Source of the DNA: a virus
Lineage: Duplodnaviria; Caudoviricetes
Reading direction: 5' to 3' (one strand)
Virus record (IMG/VR): IMGVR_UViG_3300025589_000004
Span: 1-64,000 of that record
Length of the DNA: 64,000 bases
In this document: positions 17,658 to 59,591 of the stretch, piece by piece
How positions within the stretch are numbered: the first letter of the stretch is position 1
How the letters are laid out: each line of letters begins with the position of its first letter
Position numbers and translations under genes: made by a program
The notes under the pieces: model-generated
Seen by the model: only the letters and a program-made list of their open reading frames with translations
The model's database searches: none
What the model was told of the DNA's origin: nothing

Positions 17658-18155
17658 CTATTTTAAGTCTTTAATAGTAGTCTCTGGAATTTGAATTAAA
17701 TTATCTAATAATCCAGCTTTTTTATAATCAATAATTATATCTTCAGTTATCATTGATTTATCATATGGATAAACATAATATATAGTCTTAATTCCAGATA
17801 ATAAAATATGCTTAAAACAAATAAAACAAGGCATATGTGTACAATATAATATTGAATTATTTATATCTATATTATTTTTTAATGCAAAAAATAATGCATT
17901 CATTTCTGCATGAATCTCGAATAAATTACTCCAAACAGAATGTTCAGCTCTATCAAACTCTTTATTATAATTTGGAAATTTTTCATTACAATTAATAAAT
18001 CCGGAAATTGTGCCATTAATTCCAGAAGATATTATTCTATTATTCTTAACTACAATTGCAGCCACTTTAAATGAAACACATTTACTTAATTTAGCTAAAT
18101 TTAATACTATATTTGCAAATATGATATTATTAGTATTTATATTATTCAAACTCAT
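17658..18155 (-). CDS. dCMP deaminase
   Basis: HAEMNA and PCFIC zinc motifs. Confidence 0.93.
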   Translation of the reverse strand: MSLNNINTNNIIFANIVLNLAKLSKCVSFKVAAIVVKNNRIISSGINGTISGFINCNEKFPNYNKEFDRAEHSVWSNLFEIHAEMNALFFALKNNIDINNSILYCTHMPCFICFKHILLSGIKTIYYVYPYDKSMITEDIIIDYKKAGLLDNLIQIPETTIKDLK

Positions 18156-21494: not shown

Positions 21495-22274
21495 TTATTG
21501 TTTAATTTTATCTTTAATTAGATTATAATATTTATGATATAATTTAGATGATGCTTTGACAAAGTATTTTATCTCTTTATCTTTTGGATCGGTTGATGAT
21601 ATATCTAATCCGTGTGATAAATGTAGAATAGCTAATGGAATAACACCAACAGGTATATCATTTAGAAATGCTCTTAGACAAAAACTATAATCATAGAAAT
21701 GAAAATCAAAATCTTCATCAAAGTTTATTTTTTCAAATACTTCAGGTTTTATTGACATAAAAAGGCCGTCTATTATAGCAACTTTTTTTGGTGTAATACC
21801 AAATGAAGTAGAAAAGATATTTAATTTGAAAATATCCTCTATATTATTAACCTTATTTTTACAGTTTCTTAGTATTTCATTATTTTCAATTAAAAGTGGA
21901 TGATATACAGCACCAGTAAATGAATTTCTATCTGAATTAGACCAAAATATCTTTTCTTTTTGTTTAAAGTTGATATGTGCAGAGCCAGCAACGCCGATTA
22001 TATTGTAGTTATTATGATAATAATTTAGCTTTTCTATCAGATAATAATCAAAAACTATAACATCATCATGCATAAATACAATTGAAAGATAGTCATTTAG
22101 TTTATCTTTATTTTTTTTAATTATTTCGTTATATAATATTGGAAGTGGTTTTGTATTATTGTAGACTATCTCCAAATCTATAAAATCAGATTTATCCTCA
22201 AATAATTGTTTATTAAAGTTTTTAAATTCAGCTAAATCAGATTTTGTTGGAATTATAATTTTGATTTTTTTCAT
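21495..22274 (-). CDS. GT-A fold (GT2-like) glycosyltransferase
   Basis: [36 protein letters not shown]. Confidence 0.85.
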
Positions 22275-22706: not shown

Positions 22707-23198
22707 TTAAATTCCAGAAGAACCAAATCCACCTAAATGTCTATTAGATTTATGCATATATAACTCACTATCATCAACTTGCAGCAATTTAATCTGTGGT
22801 AATTTAAAAATTATACCTTGTACAATCTTCATACCAGACTTTAATTCTATATCATCTTTACTTGTGTTGACAACATGTATATGAACTTCATTTTGATAAC
22901 CTGGATCAACTACACATGCTAATACATCTAATCCAAACTTAACAGAAATACCTGATTTATTAAAAAATATTAAAGCATAACCTGTTGGTATATCAAACTT
23001 AATTCCAGATGAAATCAAAATACGTTCTTGTGGTTTTAGAATATATGGTTTATTATCATTAAAATCATTTGGTATAAAAAAATCAATTCCAACAGATTCA
23101 CCATTATATGCAATATTTGGAGAATTAACATCTCTAATTTTTGAATATTTAATAGTTATTTTAGCAATTTTCTCTATATCTATTTTTTTATTAAACAT
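22707..23198 (-). CDS. dut: Trimeric dUTPase
   Basis: VGIDF, NKSGIS, VVDPGYQNEV, KIVQ, RHLGGFGSSG. Confidence 0.93.
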   Translation of the reverse strand: MFNKKIDIEKIAKITIKYSKIRDVNSPNIAYNGESVGIDFFIPNDFNDNKPYILKPQERILISSGIKFDIPTGYALIFFNKSGISVKFGLDVLACVVDPGYQNEVHIHVVNTSKDDIELKSGMKIVQGIIFKLPQIKLLQVDDSELYMHKSNRHLGGFGSSGI

Positions 23199-23236: not shown

Positions 23237-25393
23237 TTAAATTAAGTTTGTATAAAGATGTACTTTAATTTTTTTATCAGTAATATTTACTATTTTATCC
23301 ATATTAGCAATTTCTTTAATATAGTCAATTATACCATCAGATAATGTATTGTTTATTGGAACTCCGTGATAATTATAAGAAGTATTAATTAACATTTTTA
23401 CATTATATTTTTTATCTAGATAATCTAATAATTTATATATAAAATATGTATCTTTATTGTCTTCTTTTATTACTTGTGGTCTTCCTGAAAATAATCTATA
23501 ATTATAAATATTACAAAATACTCCAGCATATTTATCATAATTTTCAGAAACAAATTTATCATTATAAGTAAATGTAATAATCATGTAATAATAAGAACCT
23601 AGACATCTATTTATTTCTTCTATATTAAATACTTCTTTAATATTTTTTTCTAGTATAACTGGTGCAAATGGCATTACTTCATTTCTAGCATTAAGTAAAT
23701 TAATTATTTTAGAATTTAATTCTGTCGGTAAAGCTAATGTACTTGTATTACATAGTGCTCTTGGTCCAAATTCTAGATTATCTTTTATTATATTAACAAT
23801 ATCACCATTATATATTGATTCTGCTATTTCACTTATAATATTATTATTACTAAAATCAATATTCATCCTAATTAAACCATAATTATTACTAATAGTCTTA
23901 TAAAAATTATCAGAAATTAATTTAAAATCATTGTTTTGTTTAATTATATCTATTATATTTCGTCTACCATAAAATAGTGTATCTATATTAGTTAATTCAT
24001 TTGCTTCTATTGCAGCTATACCTATAGATGTTGCTACATCTCCAGCTAATGGTGGTACTATTAATTTTGTATTTATGAAATTATTATTTAATTTAGAATT
24101 AGAAATTATGTTTTGTATTAAACTATTATTTAATTTGACATTATAAAATAGTCCACCATTTACCACAATATAATCAAGTGGCATTTCTCTAAAAAATCTA
24201 GATTGACAATTATTAATAATATTTTTTAAAACTTCTTCTACTACATTTTGGATAATATAGCCTATAATTATTCTTTTTTTATCAACTGTATTTATCTGAT
24301 AATTACATTTTCTTTCAATTTCTTGTAAATCTAGATTAAAGCAATTATAATAATAGTTTTTAATTTCTGTCAGAAATTCTTGATATTTATTTAATTCCAA
24401 TTCTTTTATTTTATTATTATCATTACAATGATATGCACGATAATCTAGAAACATTAAATCTTTTTCTATTTGTTTTTCTAAGATTTTATTATAGTTTCTT
24501 AAAAATAATGAACAATGATTTGGAATAATTTCTTTATTTAATAAGTTAATAACTTCTATAGGAATCTGTTCTTTTATATATCTTTCATAACCAAGAAATT
24601 TATATTCATCTTGATTTTCTTTCATTCCAACAAAACTTGTAGCATATTGATAGAATAATGCTAGATAAAACAAATTATTTTCTATATATCTAGTTTTATT
24701 ATCTGTTTTAAAATATTCTTCTATATCAATTTTGAATGGAATATAGAAAATATCATTAAGATTTGAATATTTTATTCCCAAACCGCCAGGTAAAAAGTTA
24801 TTACCAAATCCATCTAATATTATAAATAATATATTTGATTTATCAAAATTTTCTGCATATTTTTTTGCAAATAAATGAGAATAATGTAGATGTATATTAT
24901 GGTGTCCAGTTAATAGCCAATTAATTTCATTTATAAGAATTCTATTTTCATTTATTTTATTATTTTTCTTTTTAATTTCTTTTATTAATAACTCTTTATA
25001 ATTTTTAAGTATATCTGGATATATATGATTTGGAAATGCTTGTTTATCTAATATATTAAAATTATTATTTTTAATTAAATTAACTATATTTATAATATTA
25101 TCATTGTTAATATATTGATTATCAATTAGATATGTATACCAATTACTAACAGCTAAGTTGATATTAAAAACTACATTAGAATCTTTTTCAAATTTATTAA
25201 TAATATCTGAAGCCAAAACTTTAATGCTTCTCTCTAAAGCTAAATTAACTGAACTATCACTTTTTATTCTACTTATTCTTTCATTTTCAATTGCATCTAT
25301 AACATTTACTTTTCCTTCTCCAATATCTTCAATAATAGCAACAGATGCATTATGTCCAAGAGAAATACCAATATTATAATTTATGTTTTTCAT
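23237..25393 (-). CDS. NodU/CmcH-family O-carbamoyltransferase
   Basis: GISLGHNASVA, ENERISRIK, HHNIH, ILDGFG, GGLFYNVKLN, PLAGD, EFGPRALCNTS, PFAP, RPQ, INTSYNYHGVPI. Confidence 0.92.
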   Translation of the reverse strand: MKNINYNIGISLGHNASVAIIEDIGEGKVNVIDAIENERISRIKSDSSVNLALERSIKVLASDIINKFEKDSNVVFNINLAVSNWYTYLIDNQYINNDNIINIVNLIKNNNFNILDKQAFPNHIYPDILKNYKELLIKEIKKKNNKINENRILINEINWLLTGHHNIHLHYSHLFAKKYAENFDKSNILFIILDGFGNNFLPGGLGIKYSNLNDIFYIPFKIDIEEYFKTDNKTRYIENNLFYLALFYQYATSFVGMKENQDEYKFLGYERYIKEQIPIEVINLLNKEIIPNHCSLFLRNYNKILEKQIEKDLMFLDYRAYHCNDNNKIKELELNKYQEFLTEIKNYYYNCFNLDLQEIERKCNYQINTVDKKRIIIGYIIQNVVEEVLKNIINNCQSRFFREMPLDYIVVNGGLFYNVKLNNSLIQNIISNSKLNNNFINTKLIVPPLAGDVATSIGIAAIEANELTNIDTLFYGRRNIIDIIKQNNDFKLISDNFYKTISNNYGLIRMNIDFSNNNIISEIAESIYNGDIVNIIKDNLEFGPRALCNTSTLALPTELNSKIINLLNARNEVMPFAPVILEKNIKEVFNIEEINRCLGSYYYMIITFTYNDKFVSENYDKYAGVFCNIYNYRLFSGRPQVIKEDNKDTYFIYKLLDYLDKKYNVKMLINTSYNYHGVPINNTLSDGIIDYIKEIANMDKIVNITDKKIKVHLYTNLI

Positions 25394-25441: not shown

Positions 25442-26896
25442 TTAAATCTTAATTTCATCTAATTTAATATTTTTATAAATAAAATATGTTGGATGATTTG
25501 TTTTAATCAAATTGATTTCACAAACTAAATCTTTTTGTAATTTATTTAAAATAACATTATTCATATAATCAAATGTTTCTTTACCAAAACAATATATATT
25601 TTTTGGTTCTATCAATTTAATCTCATCACATAAAATATCTGCAGAATTATTCACATCATCTATTGTAATTTTGTTATTATAAGTAGCATATTTGACAAGA
25701 TTAGTTATATATGGTATAGTTTTCAATTTTTTATCTTTAAGTAATTTCAATATAATTTGTCTAAATATATATGAGGTTCTAGTGAATATAAAACTTGGTT
25801 TGAAATAATCTTTTTCTAATCCACGACCAAATTTACCTGGATTTAATCCTAACATAATATCATTTCCTTTAAATAATAATCCATTTGGTAAACATAAACT
25901 ATCCAAAAAGTCTGCATCTATTTTTGTTTTTAAATTTGCTATTTTATCTTTAATTTCCAAATATCTACTCTTTTCTATAGTTTTATTATCTAAAAATAAT
26001 AATGAAGAAAACAGCATCCAAATAACATTATTACCAACATTTCTCAAATAATCAAAATCTGCAGGTAAATCAATAGCATATAAACTATTCATCAATTCAT
26101 TCTCTAACAAATAATCCTCTTTTTCTATCTTAGAATAATCAAAATAATCAAGTTGATTATATAATAATTTAAAATAATAATTTCTTTTTATTGCTTTCAA
26201 AAAATCAAATAATGGGTTTTTATATTGAATATTATGTCTTAATATCTTAATATCATTCTTTACTATATCTCTTTTTGTTTTTATATTCTTTATACTAAAC
26301 AATAAATTCCTAATTCTCTTATATTCAATATAATGCTTATTACTCTTTATGTCATCTACTACTCTATGTTTGTCATTGAAATTATCAACATTCTGATATA
26401 TTGTCGATAATACTATTGGTTTAAATAATATATGTTTAATTCCATATTTATCATCATTCTTTATTTCATTAATTAATTTATTTTTCAGTGAAATAACATC
26501 TTTTTTATTTGCTTCTTTATAATCAAAAAGGTCAAAAAGGAAAATTAAATTTATATCTTCACTTTGTATATTATTTAAATTATCAAAATATAAATTGAAA
26601 TAATATAATTGGTCAACCAAATCTCTATCAATAATAACTAATCTATATTTTTTCCGTAAGATATTATCTAACAATTGCATTTTAGTTTTGAATAATAATT
26701 CTTGGAATAACAAAACATTTTGTGGATTTCTACGTAATTCTGTTATACTTATATCATTAAAATAATTCTTAATTATATCTCTAGCATTATCTTTTACAAA
26801 TTTATTACCATTATTATTTTTGATTAGATTATTTAACTCTTCAATTACTGTAGTTTTTCCAGAAAAACAAGCACCAGAAAGAGTATATATAACCAT
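25442..26896 (-). CDS. Fusion of P-loop nucleotide kinase-like domain and uracil-DNA-glycosylase-superfamily domain
   Basis: N-terminal SGACFSGKTT and IIDRDLVD; C-terminal MLGLNPG, YITNLVK, EIKLIEPKNIYCFGK, NHPTY. Confidence 0.8.
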   Translation of the reverse strand: MVIYTLSGACFSGKTTVIEELNNLIKNNNGNKFVKDNARDIIKNYFNDISITELRRNPQNVLLFQELLFKTKMQLLDNILRKKYRLVIIDRDLVDQLYYFNLYFDNLNNIQSEDINLIFLFDLFDYKEANKKDVISLKNKLINEIKNDDKYGIKHILFKPIVLSTIYQNVDNFNDKHRVVDDIKSNKHYIEYKRIRNLLFSIKNIKTKRDIVKNDIKILRHNIQYKNPLFDFLKAIKRNYYFKLLYNQLDYFDYSKIEKEDYLLENELMNSLYAIDLPADFDYLRNVGNNVIWMLFSSLLFLDNKTIEKSRYLEIKDKIANLKTKIDADFLDSLCLPNGLLFKGNDIMLGLNPGKFGRGLEKDYFKPSFIFTRTSYIFRQIILKLLKDKKLKTIPYITNLVKYATYNNKITIDDVNNSADILCDEIKLIEPKNIYCFGKETFDYMNNVILNKLQKDLVCEINLIKTNHPTYFIYKNIKLDEIKI

Positions 26897-27303: not shown

Positions 27304-28746
27304 TTGTTTAGTTTTTTTATAAAAAGTATATCATTATTAATGATAAACAAAAATAATATACATATTTTTGGTCAATATTTTACTCCTTCATATATAGTTA
27401 AAAAATATATATTACCAGAAATTAAAGATAAACTTTATAATTATATTTGGATAGATTTATTTGCTGGTTCTGGTAATCTTATATTCCCAATTTTAGATAT
27501 TATTCCAGAAAATGAAAGAATAGATTTTTTTAAGAAACATATTTTTCTTTTTGATATCCAAGATAAGCTTGTAGATAAAATGATAACTATAGCTGAAAAT
27601 TATGGAATTCCAAAAGATATAGCACAAAAAAATATAACAAAAAGAGATTCTATTAAAGATTATCCAGTTTTTCTACTTGAATTAGATTTACCACTTTTTC
27701 ATATAACTAATCCACCATATCTTTATATAGGATATATTAGTAAACATCCAGAATTATATTATTATTCAGAATACTTCAAAGAAGAAAATCAAGGATATCA
27801 AGATTTATATCAATTAGCACTAATAAATGATTTAAGAAATAATATAAAAAATATGATTTATATAATTCCTTCTAATTTCTTATTTGGCTTTTCTGTTTCA
27901 AATAAAATAAGAAATGATTTTCTGAAATTTTATAATATAACTAAAACTATAGTTTTTGAAAAAGAGATATTTGAATATACTAAAATAAATAGTATGATAT
28001 GTTTTTTTCAAAGAAAAGAAACTAAAAAAGATACATTTAATAATATGTTTAATTTAATTAAAATAGCAAAAGATGATAAAGAAACTTCAGAGATTTGTCA
28101 AATTTGTACAAAAAAGAAATATAAATTAACTACTGAATTTGATGATTTTGTCGATAATTATTCAGCAAAAAAGCCAATAAATGTAAATTATTATTTATAC
28201 GAATCAGAAATAGTTAATAATTTTGGAAATAAAGAAGTTTTATTATTAGATGTTAATAATTACAAAAAAGTTAAAATGCAAGTTATTGAATCATTATTCA
28301 ATAAGTTGACTTATAATGTTTTGTTTCTAAAAACAATTGATTCAGGAAAAATGAATATGAATGATAAAGCTGGATTATATCTGATAAGAGATTATTATGG
28401 AGTAGATGGTATTATGGTAACTAAATCTGCAGCAAGAACACATCCAATACAATTATTTTTTAATCCAGAATTATCTATTGATAATCAATTATTATTAAAA
28501 GATTATTTTAATTTATTATTGAATTATTTTAGAGATATTTCTGATAGTAAATTTTTAACTAATTTTAAACAATCAAATTATTCATATATAAGAAAATATC
28601 TAGGATTAAGACAAGCTAAAAAACTAATACAAACATTTCCAATTTTATCGTTAAATCAGAATGAAATAGATATTATCACAAACTTAGTACAAGAAAAGGA
28701 AATAGAAAAGTTAATTGATTTTGTTAAAAAAGTTAATTCAAAATAA
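27304..28746 (+). CDS. Orphan N6-adenine DNA methyltransferase (likely start ATG 27340)
   Basis: GQYFTP, DLFAGSGN (motif I) before ITNPPY (motif IV), gamma-class order. Confidence 0.88.
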   Translation: MFSFFIKSISLLMINKNNIHIFGQYFTPSYIVKKYILPEIKDKLYNYIWIDLFAGSGNLIFPILDIIPENERIDFFKKHIFLFDIQDKLVDKMITIAENYGIPKDIAQKNITKRDSIKDYPVFLLELDLPLFHITNPPYLYIGYISKHPELYYYSEYFKEENQGYQDLYQLALINDLRNNIKNMIYIIPSNFLFGFSVSNKIRNDFLKFYNITKTIVFEKEIFEYTKINSMICFFQRKETKKDTFNNMFNLIKIAKDDKETSEICQICTKKKYKLTTEFDDFVDNYSAKKPINVNYYLYESEIVNNFGNKEVLLLDVNNYKKVKMQVIESLFNKLTYNVLFLKTIDSGKMNMNDKAGLYLIRDYYGVDGIMVTKSAARTHPIQLFFNPELSIDNQLLLKDYFNLLLNYFRDISDSKFLTNFKQSNYSYIRKYLGLRQAKKLIQTFPILSLNQNEIDIITNLVQEKEIEKLIDFVKKVNSK

Positions 28747-57075: not shown

Positions 57076-58092
57076 ATGAATAGTGAAAATATTACTAATA
57101 TAAATGTTATTTATGTCGATATCAATAATATATGTTTTCTATCTCTATTTAATGCATTTTCTAAGTTTAAAAATAACAAAAATAATAATTATTTATCAAC
57201 AATAAATGAAAATACTAATTTACTATTAGATAATGCCTTTGAAAGCCAATTAAATAGTATATTTGATAATTTATTTAATAATATTCATAATCTTCAATTA
57301 TATAAATCTATCATTCCAAATATAACAGATAATGATTATTTTATTTTCTTTTATGTTAAAGATTGTTCATATAAAGATAATTGGAGGAAGAAGATATTTA
57401 ATGATTATAAATTAAATAGGAAAATAAAAAAGCGGGAATTTGATTATAATGCTGTTTTTTGTTATTTATATGATAAAATAACAAATACTATTACAAATAA
57501 AAATAATATATTACACGATCAAAATCTAGAAGCAGATGATATTATATATTATAGTATAATTACACTTAAAAATAATAAAGATATCAAAAACCAAATAATA
57601 GTTTCAAATGATTCTGATTATTTTCAAGTTCATGATAATAATATATATCAAATTAATTGTTATGGTGAATTATTGTCAATAGAAGAATATTTCCAGAAAA
57701 TAATAGAAAAAAGCAAAAAAAATAAAGAATTATTTGAAAAATATAAAAAAGATATATGTAATAATAGATTTTTTAAATTATATAAAATTCTTTTAGGAGA
57801 TAAAGGTGATAATATACCACCAGTAATATCTGATCAAAAAATTGGAAAAATTAAGTTATTCAATTTATTATTAACAGAACAGAAAAAATTACAGGATATG
57901 ATAGCAACTAATCCAATATATCATAGCAATTTTAAATTAAACACCAAACTAATAGACTTAAGTAGAATTCCAATAAATCATATCGATAAAATTAACTATA
58001 CAATCAATAATACATTATCTGAATATAAAAATAGTATAATTAATAATAATCAACCAGATTTGTTAAACAATTTTAAGAAAAGCATATTATGA
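57076..58092 (+). CDS. 5'-3' exonuclease / T4 RNase H-like
   Basis: YVDINN, NWRKKIFNDYKLNR, LEADDII, SNDSDYFQ, GDKGDNIP. Confidence 0.92.
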   Translation: MNSENITNINVIYVDINNICFLSLFNAFSKFKNNKNNNYLSTINENTNLLLDNAFESQLNSIFDNLFNNIHNLQLYKSIIPNITDNDYFIFFYVKDCSYKDNWRKKIFNDYKLNRKIKKREFDYNAVFCYLYDKITNTITNKNNILHDQNLEADDIIYYSIITLKNNKDIKNQIIVSNDSDYFQVHDNNIYQINCYGELLSIEEYFQKIIEKSKKNKELFEKYKKDICNNRFFKLYKILLGDKGDNIPPVISDQKIGKIKLFNLLLTEQKKLQDMIATNPIYHSNFKLNTKLIDLSRIPINHIDKINYTINNTLSEYKNSIINNNQPDLLNNFKKSIL

Positions 58093-58760
58093 AAGAATTA
58101 TTAAAATATATAGATTTTGTTTATAAACCAATAAAAGAAAATGATAGTCTTATTTTCAAAATTAAAGCAAACAATTTAATAGAATTTCAAAATATATTTA
58201 AAGAAATAGAAAATAATCTAGATAATATACAAAAAGAATATTTCAATATCAAAAATAAATTATTTGAAAATATAGATATTAATAAATCAGAAATATTAAA
58301 ATTCAAATTAACTAATAATATCAATTTTCCATCAATTAAAGATATAGATAAATTAGATAATCTACCAAAAACTATATATACTAATAGTATATTATTGGAA
58401 AATAACTATGAATATAATTATGTAAATAAAAAAAGAGTATTAGATAGAATATATAGTACAATCTCAGAGATTATAAAATTATCTCCAAGAAGAGCATATC
58501 TGAGATTAGTTAATGATATAAATAGATATTTTAAATCATTATATGAGCCTACAGATATTAGTTGCTGTATTGGTATTCATTTCTTAGAAAATAGATGTAT
58601 ATTGAATTTTAGAGCATCAGATGTCAAATATGATTTAATAGTAGATTTATTAACTATATTCTATAATATAATATATCCAATATATTTTAGATGTGAAAAA
58701 TCTAATTTGAATGAAATATTATTTATAGCAAATACAGCACAAAATATAGAAGGAATATAG
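58089..58760 (+). CDS. Divergent thymidylate-synthase-fold protein
   Basis: SPRRA, DISCC..IHF, FRASDVKYDLIVD, ANTAQ match TS motif order; overlaps the upstream gene and abuts the gp42-like gene. Confidence 0.65.
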   Translation: MKELLKYIDFVYKPIKENDSLIFKIKANNLIEFQNIFKEIENNLDNIQKEYFNIKNKLFENIDINKSEILKFKLTNNINFPSIKDIDKLDNLPKTIYTNSILLENNYEYNYVNKKRVLDRIYSTISEIIKLSPRRAYLRLVNDINRYFKSLYEPTDISCCIGIHFLENRCILNFRASDVKYDLIVDLLTIFYNIIYPIYFRCEKSNLNEILFIANTAQNIEGI

Positions 58761-58763
58761 AAT

Positions 58764-59591
58764 ATGTCTAGTAAGGTTAATGATTATATACAATCTGAAT
58801 TAATTAATAGAGAGGTTTTAAATAGATATTATAATATATGGAAAGAAAATTATAATAATAGTGTTAATAATGGAAATAGTAATTTATTGGAAACCATAGC
58901 AAGATTTAAAGAACTTAAAGATAATGAATGTTATTGTTTAGATAAATCTTCTGTTCGTGTTTTAGAGATAATAAATGCACAAATTAAAACAGAAAATATA
59001 ACTGATATAACTAAATATACTCCATTTACTAAAATTGGAAGTAAATCTACTAATATAGATTATTCATTAAAAGAAATAAATTGGTATTTGGATATGAATT
59101 TATCTATAGATGGATTACAACCCACACCAACAATTTGGACATTAGTTGCAGATAAAAATAGAATAATAAATTCAAATTATGGTTATATTATATTTTCAGA
59201 TAATAATAAAAATCAATTTTTGAATGCTATTTGTGCTATTCTAGAAAATATATATACTAGACGCTCTATAATGATATATCAATGTCCAGAAATGCATTAT
59301 AAATATAAAGAGAATAATAGAAATGATTTTGTATGTACTATTTCACATCAATTTATAGTAAGAAAAAATAAGAATGAATATACACTAAATAGTATTATCA
59401 ATATGCGTTCTCAAGATTTTATTTATGGATATTTGAATGATATAGTGTGGTTTAATTATGTGCATTTTTTAGGATATGAAATTTTAACTAAAATAATTCC
59501 AGAAATTACTATAAATAGACACAATATATATCTTAATGTAGGCAGTTTGCATATATATGAAAAACATTTTAAGCTACTTGATAACAAATAG
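58764..59591 (+). CDS. dCMP hydroxymethylase (T4 gp42-like)
   Basis: INSNYG, RRSIMIY, DFVCT, NMRSQDFIYGYLND (Asp at the specificity position), GSLHIYEKHF closely follow T4 gp42. Confidence 0.88.
   Translation: MSSKVNDYIQSELINREVLNRYYNIWKENYNNSVNNGNSNLLETIARFKELKDNECYCLDKSSVRVLEIINAQIKTENITDITKYTPFTKIGSKSTNIDYSLKEINWYLDMNLSIDGLQPTPTIWTLVADKNRIINSNYGYIIFSDNNKNQFLNAICAILENIYTRRSIMIYQCPEMHYKYKENNRNDFVCTISHQFIVRKNKNEYTLNSIINMRSQDFIYGYLNDIVWFNYVHFLGYEILTKIIPEITINRHNIYLNVGSLHIYEKHFKLLDNK

Follow-up and report, generated by a model that had tools for sequence, protein, structure and literature searches.

In phage T4 the precursors of 5-hydroxymethylcytosine (5hmC) are provided by three enzymes, the dCMP hydroxymethylase gp42, the dNMP kinase gp1, and the dCTPase/dUTPase gp56. 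Another cytosine-modifying module, found in uncultured phages, was described by Yang et al. (eLife 2021); it comprises genes for a NodU/TobZ-type carbamoyltransferase, a thymidylate-synthase-like hydroxymethylase, a dCMP deaminase, and dUTPase-type proteins, and a carbamoyltransferase of this kind makes 5-carbamoyloxymethylcytosine (5cmC) from 5hmC in DNA, with a preference for single strands, and also from 5hmdCTP (PMC8670742). That work mentions neither a kinase nor any uracil-DNA glycosylase (UDG), and according to its supplement the domain AAA_28 is enriched on modified contigs, as are T4-type structural domains (PMC8670742); because the latter are likewise enriched, the AAA_28 signal may reflect shared ancestry. 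The subject of the present analysis is a gene at positions 25442..26896 (minus strand) of a 64,000-nucleotide stretch of DNA from a virus of the Caudoviricetes (positions 1 to 64,000 of the IMG/VR record IMGVR_UViG_3300025589_000004; this whole stretch is referred to below as the window). It encodes a P-loop kinase fused to a protein with the UDG fold and stands immediately beside a carbamoyltransferase gene, a feature of the window that goes beyond the published 5cmC module. The carbamoyltransferase tested by Yang et al. is a protein of 63 kDa, whereas that of the window has 718 amino acids (aa).

The window follows the scheme of T4, a hydroxymethylase being combined in a T4-like phage with a dedicated kinase, a dCTPase/dUTPase-like enzyme, and a transferase for the decoration. 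It differs in that its kinase is not homologous to gp1, in the presence of a UDG, which T4 lacks, and in the decoration, which is glucose in T4 and is predicted to be carbamoyl here. In the thymidine hypermodification pathways a P-loop 5-hydroxymethyldeoxyuridine (5-hmdU) DNA kinase is paired, and sometimes fused, with the glycosylase-fold protein aGPT-Pplase, beside a hydroxymethylase (Lee et al. 2018 and 2021; PMC5889632, PMC8989533). That pair consists of a PF18748 kinase and a helix-hairpin-helix protein and acts on thymine in DNA, whereas the window fusion contains a kinase of another family and a UDG alpha/beta fold, is associated with cytosine, and its kinase most likely acts on free nucleotides. 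Finally, the DNA polymerases of SP-15-like phages carry a fused UDG, the stated role of which is the removal of dU and the protection of the modified genome, its activity having been shown experimentally (PMC13697223). These phages share with that of the window a modified pyrimidine, predicted in the latter case, and a UDG fused to an enzyme of replication or nucleotide metabolism, but their fusion partner is a polymerase rather than a kinase and the modified base is thymine.

The Fusion Protein and Its Relatives

The open reading frame (ORF) in question, P0001 (25442..26896, minus strand), codes for 484 aa plus a stop and comprises a kinase domain, a helical extension, and a UDG fold, in this order. 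Two Pfam families match the protein above their cut-offs, AAA_28 at residues 6–122 (E 4e-8) and UDG at residues 348–476 (E 7e-7). A word-indexed homology search yielded a single relative, and an exhaustive search of 1.84 billion representatives yielded 69 related proteins, of which approximately 24 (counted as sequence clusters) are full-length fusions of 407–504 aa, the others being UDG-like proteins of 140–250 aa or kinases of about 200 aa that stand alone. Twenty fused homologues can be aligned end to end, with 36 invariant columns, and both Pfam families are matched in all 20. In the kinase part the invariant positions comprise the P-loop, D90-R91, D95, and Y99, and in the UDG part G350, P353, G354, Y396-I397-T398-N399, K402, and H468-P469. 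The identical protein sequence was called on 16 assembled contigs, which together with the full-length alignment of 20 homologues shows that the fusion ORF is not a chance product; the kinase-UDG fusion is real and recurrent in uncultured phages. The AlphaFold2 model built from the 20-sequence alignment has a mean pLDDT of 81 and a pTM of 0.82. No match to the fusion protein was obtained with tblastn among 50,697 GenBank phage records, nor with phmmer when the single sequence was compared with the PDB.

The window is very AT-rich (G+C about 16–30%) and originates from a virus record of 98.8 kb with an estimated completeness of 42%, which encodes several T4-type proteins: the gp23 capsid protein, UvsY, gp25, gp15, and the tail sheath protein. 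The only readable signals upstream of the fusion ATG are a plausible TAGTATAAT element and a AAAGGAAAGG ribosome-binding site. A promoter scan of this AT-rich region gave 71 hits, not above the 59.5 +/- 7.1 expected from shuffled sequence, and no terminator was found by scanning the region of the fusion gene.

The UDG Unit

The UDG-fold core spans residues 305–484 (25445..25984, minus strand). That this half of the protein adopts a UDG fold, as the original prediction made from the sequence alone had proposed, is confirmed by both profiles and structures. The UDG-superfamily profile PF03167 scores 29.9 bits against a cut-off of 24.3, and in the VIA structure comparison of residues 305–484 the best match is 1vk2 (Z 14.8, with 159 residues aligned at an rmsd of 2.9 A), with 4zbx (14.4), 1ui0 (13.7), UdgX (13.7), and family 5 (13.0) following. 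Foldseek matches the core to 1l9g (E 7.8e-6). When residues 215–484 were modelled alone and compared by an exhaustive VIA search with 48,161 chains, all of the top 16 matches belonged to the UDG superfamily, led by the family-4 enzyme 1l9g (Z 14.1) and including 2d3y (12.8) and UdgX (12.8); lower scores were obtained for SMUG1 (9.8), the UDG domain of the phiLo phage polymerase (9.2), TDG (8.6), and MUG (8.3). A PDB profile search retrieved the Sulfolobus tokodaii UDG 4zbx with an E of 1.4e-9, its GEAPG, ITN, and HPA segments being aligned. The family-4 UDGs (Thermotoga maritima TM0511, 1L9G/1VK2; S. tokodaii, 4ZBX; Thermus thermophilus, 1UI0) and UdgX are the best fold and profile matches, with motif A, ITN, and HP[AS] in alignment.

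Upstream of the core lies a helical extension formed by residues 228–304 (25985..26215, minus strand), with two long helices, a loop, and the conserved residues Y251, Y254, and N270. Its pattern Y..Y....N...N..G is shared with the stand-alone UDG-like relatives, and since these carry the extension too, it belongs to the UDG unit; residues 228–304 gave no structural match beyond the UDG core in comparisons that barely tested this part.

The motifs named in the original prediction are all present. Motif A is GLNPG at residues 350–354 (25835..25849, minus strand), with a polar residue at position 3 as in MUG and SMUG. The segment YITN, residues 396–399 (25700..25711, minus strand), which is part of YITNLVK 396–402, aligns with the ITN of family-4 UDGs, and its T398 and N399 are invariant throughout the wider UDG-like alignment. 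Motif B is the invariant pair H468-P469 (25490..25495, minus strand) within HPT 468–470, aligned with the HPA of 4zbx; the nearby Y474 occupies the position of the tyrosine in HPAAALY of the S. tokodaii UDG, so that the wedge-loop Tyr is as in that enzyme. Between motif A and YITN lies KPSF, residues 366–369 (25790..25801, minus strand), which aligns with the RPF segment of the S. tokodaii enzyme; F369, conserved in at least 90% of the 20 fusions, is a candidate base-stacking residue.

Several characters set the domain apart from canonical family-4 enzymes, namely the missing 4Fe-4S cysteine set, the extra N-terminal helices, and GLNPG in place of GE[AG]PG. The earlier claim that no Fe-S cysteine cluster is present holds: the fusion protein has five cysteines, and because C335 is the only one of them conserved in the family, a 4Fe-4S set is lacking; KYA stands where family 4 has KCRPP. 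The scores of the NCBIfam family-4 models are far below their cut-offs (TIGR00758, 20.7 bits versus 125.3; NF040953, 20.9 versus 250), and together with the absence of the Fe-S cysteines this indicates that the domain is derived from family 4 without being a member of it. The MUG/SMUG pattern G-x-N-P-G is present in motif A, but the fold is not nearest to MUG or SMUG. The mixture of a MUG/SMUG-like motif with a family-4/5 scaffold had been noticed correctly, and it recurs in the clade. Motif A is GEAPG in 19 of the 20 aligned fusions and GLNPG in the window protein; in the wider UDG-like alignment two states alternate, one with Glu in position 2 and one with Asn in position 3 (GENPG, GQNPG, GMNPG, GINPG, and GLNPG), and a few members of the clade (GIAPG, GMAPG, GIAPS) have neither polar residue.

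As the family-4 residues for uracil binding and cleavage are kept and a polar motif-A residue is found in most members, the excision of uracil-type bases, that is U, 5-hydroxymethyluracil (5-hmU), or a carbamoylated form of it, is the most economical reading of the domain, one given slightly less than an even chance on its sequence features. The removal of 5-hmU or a derivative, as proposed in the original prediction, would fit the conserved pocket of Asn399, His468, Phe369, and the polar motif-A residue, but the other role suggested there, discrimination of unmodified from modified DNA, found no support.

The Kinase Domain

Residues 1–225 (26222..26896, minus strand) form a P-loop kinase domain of the AAA_28/deoxynucleoside kinase (dNK)/NadR ribosylnicotinamide kinase (RNK) type, according to Pfam, profile, and structure comparisons. 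The P-loop and DR motif predicted for the N-terminal part are in place. The Walker A sequence GACFSGKTT occupies residues 8–16 (26849..26875, minus strand), its G8 and K14 being invariant in the 20 homologues, and is followed by the invariant D90-R91 (26624..26629, minus strand), D95, and Y99; D90-R91 probably corresponds to the ERS/DRY motif of dNKs and thymidylate kinases. The closest structures found with VIA for residues 1–222 are the NadR RNK domain (Z 13.0), Drosophila dNK (12.9), and human deoxycytidine kinase (dCK, 12.7), and the PDB profile search points to the same Drosophila enzyme (E 5e-5). The dNK family PF01712 does not match the window kinase at E 1 or better; it is found in 8 of the 20 fused relatives, down to E 1.4e-12. 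Matches to the thymidylate kinase family PF02223 are weak and limited to 4 of the 20 relatives (best E 2e-4), and thymidylate kinases appear in Foldseek with E about 1e-3. In the kinase-domain tree the window protein forms a very long branch, with 3.3 changes per column, and the tree requires that the fusion was gained or lost at least twice. Two segments of its model are of low confidence, residues 114–127 (26521–26557) and 169–179 (26360–26392), the former lying in an insertion that has no counterpart in any of the 19 fused relatives.

Two candidate relationships were rejected. Homology to the T4 gp1 dNMP kinase (PF21448, DNMK) received an hhalign probability of 1.5%, and a search with the DNMK family in five records did not match the fusion gene in any of them. 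The 5-hmdU DNA kinase family (PF18748, HMUDK_HMUD1) does not match the window kinase at E 1 or better and is aligned to it by hhalign over the P-loop only; the positive control, the proven 5-hmdU DNA kinase M6 gp54, matches PF18748 with E 7.7e-18.

The assignment of the domain as a kinase of modified dCMP, made in the original prediction, is upheld by the gene context and by a kinase-hydroxymethylase fusion and is opposed by the nearest structural relatives, which are nucleoside kinases. Since the kinase gene lies between those of the carbamoyltransferase and the hydroxymethylase, is fused to a hydroxymethylase once, and is nearly universal in the loci, it is most likely a 5-hydroxymethyl-dCMP (5-hm-dCMP) kinase. 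It would thus carry 5-hm-dCMP forward like T4 gp1 in function, though as a member of another family, an assignment that can be called probable with some reserve.

A Core Kinase and an Accessory UDG

The distribution of both domains was surveyed at 58 carbamoyltransferase loci from IMG/VR with hidden Markov models built from alignments of the kinase, the extension, the UDG, two kinds of thymidylate-synthase-like proteins (TSp and TS), and the carbamoyltransferase; the counts given here refer to the 44 loci flanked on each side by 3 kb or more. A kinase of this family without a UDG is encoded at 21 of the 44 loci, usually between the carbamoyltransferase and TS, the kinase-UDG fusion at seven, and a kinase and a UDG unit as separate neighbouring genes at three, whereas at the remaining 13 neither was detected. 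The kinase is therefore present at 31 of the 44 loci and the UDG unit at 10, in all 10 together with the kinase. The UDG gene precedes that of the kinase at two split loci, and at the third it is located upstream of the carbamoyltransferase. Separate UDG and kinase genes were seen in L010 (9872-11319), L011, L033 (7236-7985), and L081 (918-2344) and represent a natural split and permutation of the fusion. A complex prediction for the naturally split kinase and UDG of L010 scored 0.01 and was used neither for nor against their binding. The 13 loci with neither domain have small Walker-A ORFs of 153–182 aa next to the carbamoyltransferase gene or within a few kb of it, and in the six of these loci that were scanned weak AAA_28 or thymidylate-kinase matches were obtained.

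In one relative, P0063 (L078:2147-3562, 471 aa), a kinase of the same AAA_28-type family is fused to a Thymidylat_synt domain. Its gene is placed directly after that of the carbamoyltransferase and before the genes of a dUTPase and a second TS-like protein. The frequencies of 31 and 10 among 44 loci, the constant company of the kinase wherever the UDG unit occurs, and this kinase-hydroxymethylase fusion indicate that the kinase is the core nucleotide-level enzyme and the UDG an accessory. The UDG of the fusion is the sole UDG-superfamily hit in five records, which include two complete genomes. A gp1-like DNMK ORF of 204–206 aa was found 2 kb downstream of the fusion gene, after a primase-like gene, at two loci (L006:12983-13594 and L005:13032-13628); the records concerned are G001, 100% complete, with a weak match of 31.8 bits summed, and G004, 70% complete.

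A Second Fusion Lineage in Bacillus Phage G

The statement that no fusion of this kind has been characterised is valid as regards experiments, but the architecture itself is not unique, since a second kinase lineage carries a UDG domain as well. Its cultured representative is gp315 of Bacillus phage G, annotated in RefSeq as 'thymidylate kinase', a protein of 331 aa in which a kinase is followed by a homologous UDG domain; the same order is seen in P0055 (349 aa), one of the kinase-UDG proteins of 330–350 aa from uncultured phages. The UDG domain of the window protein is aligned by hhalign to those of P0055 and gp315 with probabilities of 97–98% (E 2.5e-12 and 5.5e-11). The kinases of these two proteins are thymidylate-kinase/SKI-like, and hhalign finds no alignment between them and the window kinase. 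The two fusion proteins are also shorter than that of the window and lack the long helical extension. Motif A of gp315 is AQNPG, with Asn at position 3 like the window protein.

In phage G the gene of gp315 belongs to a cluster (L083, record positions 228758-234494) that also encodes the alpha-glucosyltransferase gp313, the dCMP deaminase gp317, and the TS-like gp319. This gene content suggests a genome with a glucosyl-hydroxymethylpyrimidine; a literature search found no report of such a genome in phage G. The partner transferase is a glucosyltransferase in phage G and a carbamoyltransferase in the window, and this independence of the kinase-UDG pairing from the decorating group is an argument for placing the action of the fusion before the decoration step.

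The Gene Module in the Window and at Related Loci

A NodU/TobZ-type carbamoyltransferase gene adjoins the fusion-family gene at all 12 of the 12 loci considered, and a dCTPase/dUTPase-like gene and a pair of Asp-type thymidylate-synthase-like genes belong to the module. The link to a cytosine hypermodification pathway drawn in the original prediction is upheld. In the window the carbamoyltransferase (718 aa; 23237..25393, minus strand), encoded on the strand of the fusion gene and starting 48 nt downstream of it, is recognised by Carbam_trans_C (E 4.5e-25) and phrog_1601 (E 1.8e-44). Its relatives have about 540–610 aa, and Pfam recognises only the C-terminal domain of the window protein, which makes AT-rich insertions probable. 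The next gene encodes a dUTPase/dCTP-deaminase-like protein of 163 aa (22707..23198, minus strand), a candidate dCTPase/dUTPase and functional analogue of gp56. Two genes downstream of the carbamoyltransferase a Glyco_tranf_2_5 glycosyltransferase is encoded (21495-22274, minus strand). A 480-aa N6_Mtase-like gene (27304-28746, plus strand) is divergent from the fusion gene and is conserved beside it on another contig of the same phage (L082).

The tandem thymidylate-synthase-like pair (58089..59591, plus strand) is 32 kb away from the fusion gene and consists of TSp (223 aa, 58089-58760) and an Asp-type hydroxymethylase-like protein (275 aa, 58764-59591). A NodU-type carbamoyltransferase and an Asp-type hydroxymethylase, the two enzymes of a 5hmC-to-5cmC module, are thus encoded by the same phage. 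The hydroxymethylase-like proteins have Asp at the position of Asn177 of the Escherichia coli ThyA (RSNDxxxGxxxD), the residue of the dCMP type; the Pfam family Thymidylat_synt does not match the 275-aa protein at E 1 or better. TSp proteins, 210–240 aa long, keep the Cys, the RR pair, and RASD...D and have no Pfam match. At the other fusion loci the usual gene order is carbamoyltransferase, fusion, thymidylate-synthase-like genes. TSp directly follows the fusion or the split kinase gene at seven of them (L003, L004, L009, L010, and L011 included), with TS directly next at four of these; at three loci the Asp-type TS takes this place instead of TSp, and one further locus ends inside the fusion gene. 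Of the 44 carbamoyltransferase loci with sufficient flanks, 18 have TSp, and no kinase-only locus is among these.

A dCMP deaminase-like gene (17658..18155, minus strand; dCMP_cyt_deam_1, E 2.3e-18) is a possible source of deaminated, uracil-type nucleotides. The idea that the presence of the UDG tracks that of a nearby dCMP deaminase was not supported; the deaminase tracks TSp instead. Some phages bearing the module encode a DnaE-type polymerase (PHP, DNA_pol3_alpha; L009:9429-12071 and L010:3024-4646); the L009 and L010 loci share no structural genes with the T4-like window and by their look belong to a different kind of phage. The occurrence of the module in such DnaE-polymerase phages indicates that the cassette moves between phage lineages.

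Proposed Function and Alternative Explanations

The best explanation of the whole, though a tentative one, is that the fusion would be a bifunctional accessory enzyme of a pathway replacing cytosine, via 5hmC, with 5cmC. The kinase domain would phosphorylate the product of the hydroxymethylase, 5-hm-dCMP, to the diphosphate, as gp1 does in T4, a cellular NDP kinase would complete the triphosphate, and the carbamoyltransferase could have this triphosphate or nascent single-stranded DNA as its substrate. The UDG domain would be an active, or at least base-flipping, glycosylase for U, 5-hmU, or carbamoylated 5-hmU, bases that could arise by deamination of cytosine-derived nucleotides or by mistaken phosphorylation of dUMP or hm-dUMP. 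Their removal would keep a fully substituted genome clean, and the fusion to the kinase would place the glycosylase within the nucleotide-synthesis and replication machinery.

Several observations weigh against this explanation. On the side of the glycosylase, the motif-A Glu kept in 19 of 20 fused relatives is lost in the window protein, and because of this loss and of the few members with no polar residue in motif A, catalysis is not guaranteed. The uracil-type substrate cannot be read from the fold, since enzymes of the UDG superfamily can excise cytosine derivatives, as does Brig3, which removes 5hmC (PMC13160076). The UDG unit is absent from two thirds of the kinase-bearing loci (21/31), so it is not essential to the pathway. 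As for the kinase, its closest relatives (NadR RNK, dNK, dCK, NRK1) phosphorylate the 5'-OH of nucleosides and not monophosphates, and in G001 and G004 it need not be the sole dNMP kinase, given the gp1-like DNMK ORF 2 kb away. The activities predicted for the fusion family derive from sequence, structure, and context.

The alternatives differ mainly in what the UDG fold would do. It might not be a glycosylase at all but a DNA- or nucleotide-binding module serving to tether or regulate the hm-dCMP kinase, by docking it at the fork or by sensing uracil-type nucleotides. The variability of motif A, with GIAPG, GMAPG, and GIAPS devoid of a polar catalytic residue and the Glu lost in the window protein, would agree with such a role, and the fact that the unit never occurs without a kinase and is joined to two unrelated kinase lineages points to dependence on the kinase rather than free-standing repair. 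However, in most members the polar residue of motif A (Glu at position 2 or Asn at position 3) is retained along with the Asn, His, and Phe that are invariant in the base pocket, a pattern suggestive of selection on catalysis, and family-5 UDGs are active without a polar motif-A residue; a non-catalytic UDG is accordingly regarded as unlikely, while deserving more weight than the proposals that follow. One of these would have the UDG fold act on free nucleotides, hydrolysing dUMP or 5-hm-dUMP as a pool sanitiser that keeps the adjacent kinase from making the triphosphates, in analogy to DNPH1, the pool sanitiser for hmdUMP. Repeated fusion with nucleotide kinases suggests a common pool of small-molecule substrates, and UdgX was crystallised with dUMP (6ajp), but UDG enzymes are poor on mononucleotides and the conserved Tyr in the loop after motif B, as in the S. 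tokodaii UDG, fits DNA binding, so that the chance allowed to this proposal is the smallest of all.

Two further alternatives concern the kinase as well. Both domains could act on DNA after replication, the kinase phosphorylating the hydroxymethyl group of 5hmC and the UDG fold flipping the base and catalysing or assisting a substitution, which would make the fusion, by analogy, a cytosine counterpart of the 5-hmdU DNA kinase and aGPT-Pplase and would lead to a hypermodification beyond 5cmC. The thymidine pathway indeed pairs a P-loop kinase with a glycosylase-fold protein beside a hydroxymethylase, sometimes in one polypeptide (PMC8989533, PMC5889632), the closest relatives of the window kinase phosphorylate primary alcohols, namely the nucleoside 5'-OH, the UDG unit always accompanies the kinase, and two related records have a separate gp1-like kinase. 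On the other hand, PF18748 does not match the kinase, hhalign aligning the P-loop alone; the fold is that of a UDG and not helix-hairpin-helix; the kinase lacks the UDG at 21 of 31 loci and in one relative is fused to a nucleotide-level hydroxymethylase; and a related carbamoyltransferase, which on its own turns 5hmC into 5cmC, would be a competitor for the same hydroxyl. Taken together, these points make action on DNA improbable. Alternatively, the kinase could be a salvage deoxynucleoside kinase and the UDG an ordinary uracil-repair enzyme, fused incidentally and with no special link to modification, in keeping with the top kinase matches (dNK, dCK, NadR) and with UDG motifs typical of uracil-excising families. 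The carbamoyltransferase adjoining at 12 of 12 loci, the position of the kinase between carbamoyltransferase and hydroxymethylase at most loci, the single kinase-hydroxymethylase fusion, and the absence of any UDG unit without a kinase speak against it and leave it a chance a shade lower than that of action on DNA.

Significance

Both superfamilies are known, as is the pathway context, published in 2021. Literature searches for a kinase-UDG fusion or for work following up 5cmC found nothing, and in the literature searched no report was found of three points: the membership of the kinase in the core of the 5cmC module as its third component, its fusion or pairing with a UDG derived from family 4 and free of Fe-S, and the switching of motif A, with Glu at position 2 in one state and Asn at position 3 in the other. 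The 5cmC pathway as published lists only the hydroxymethylase and the carbamoyltransferase, and the present data indicate a dNK-like kinase as a near-universal third component. Phage hypermodification pathways are a source of enzymes for epigenetic sequencing; they also influence the evolutionary contest of phages with restriction enzymes, CRISPR, and defences that rely on glycosylases. Should the UDG half of the fusion remove 5-hmU or carbamoyl-hmU, a genome with modified cytosine would have in it a dedicated proofreader, and it would also be a candidate reagent; should it lack catalysis or have nucleotides as substrates, the known range of the UDG fold would be extended. The homologous UDG domain in gp315 of phage G makes this question testable in a cultured system.

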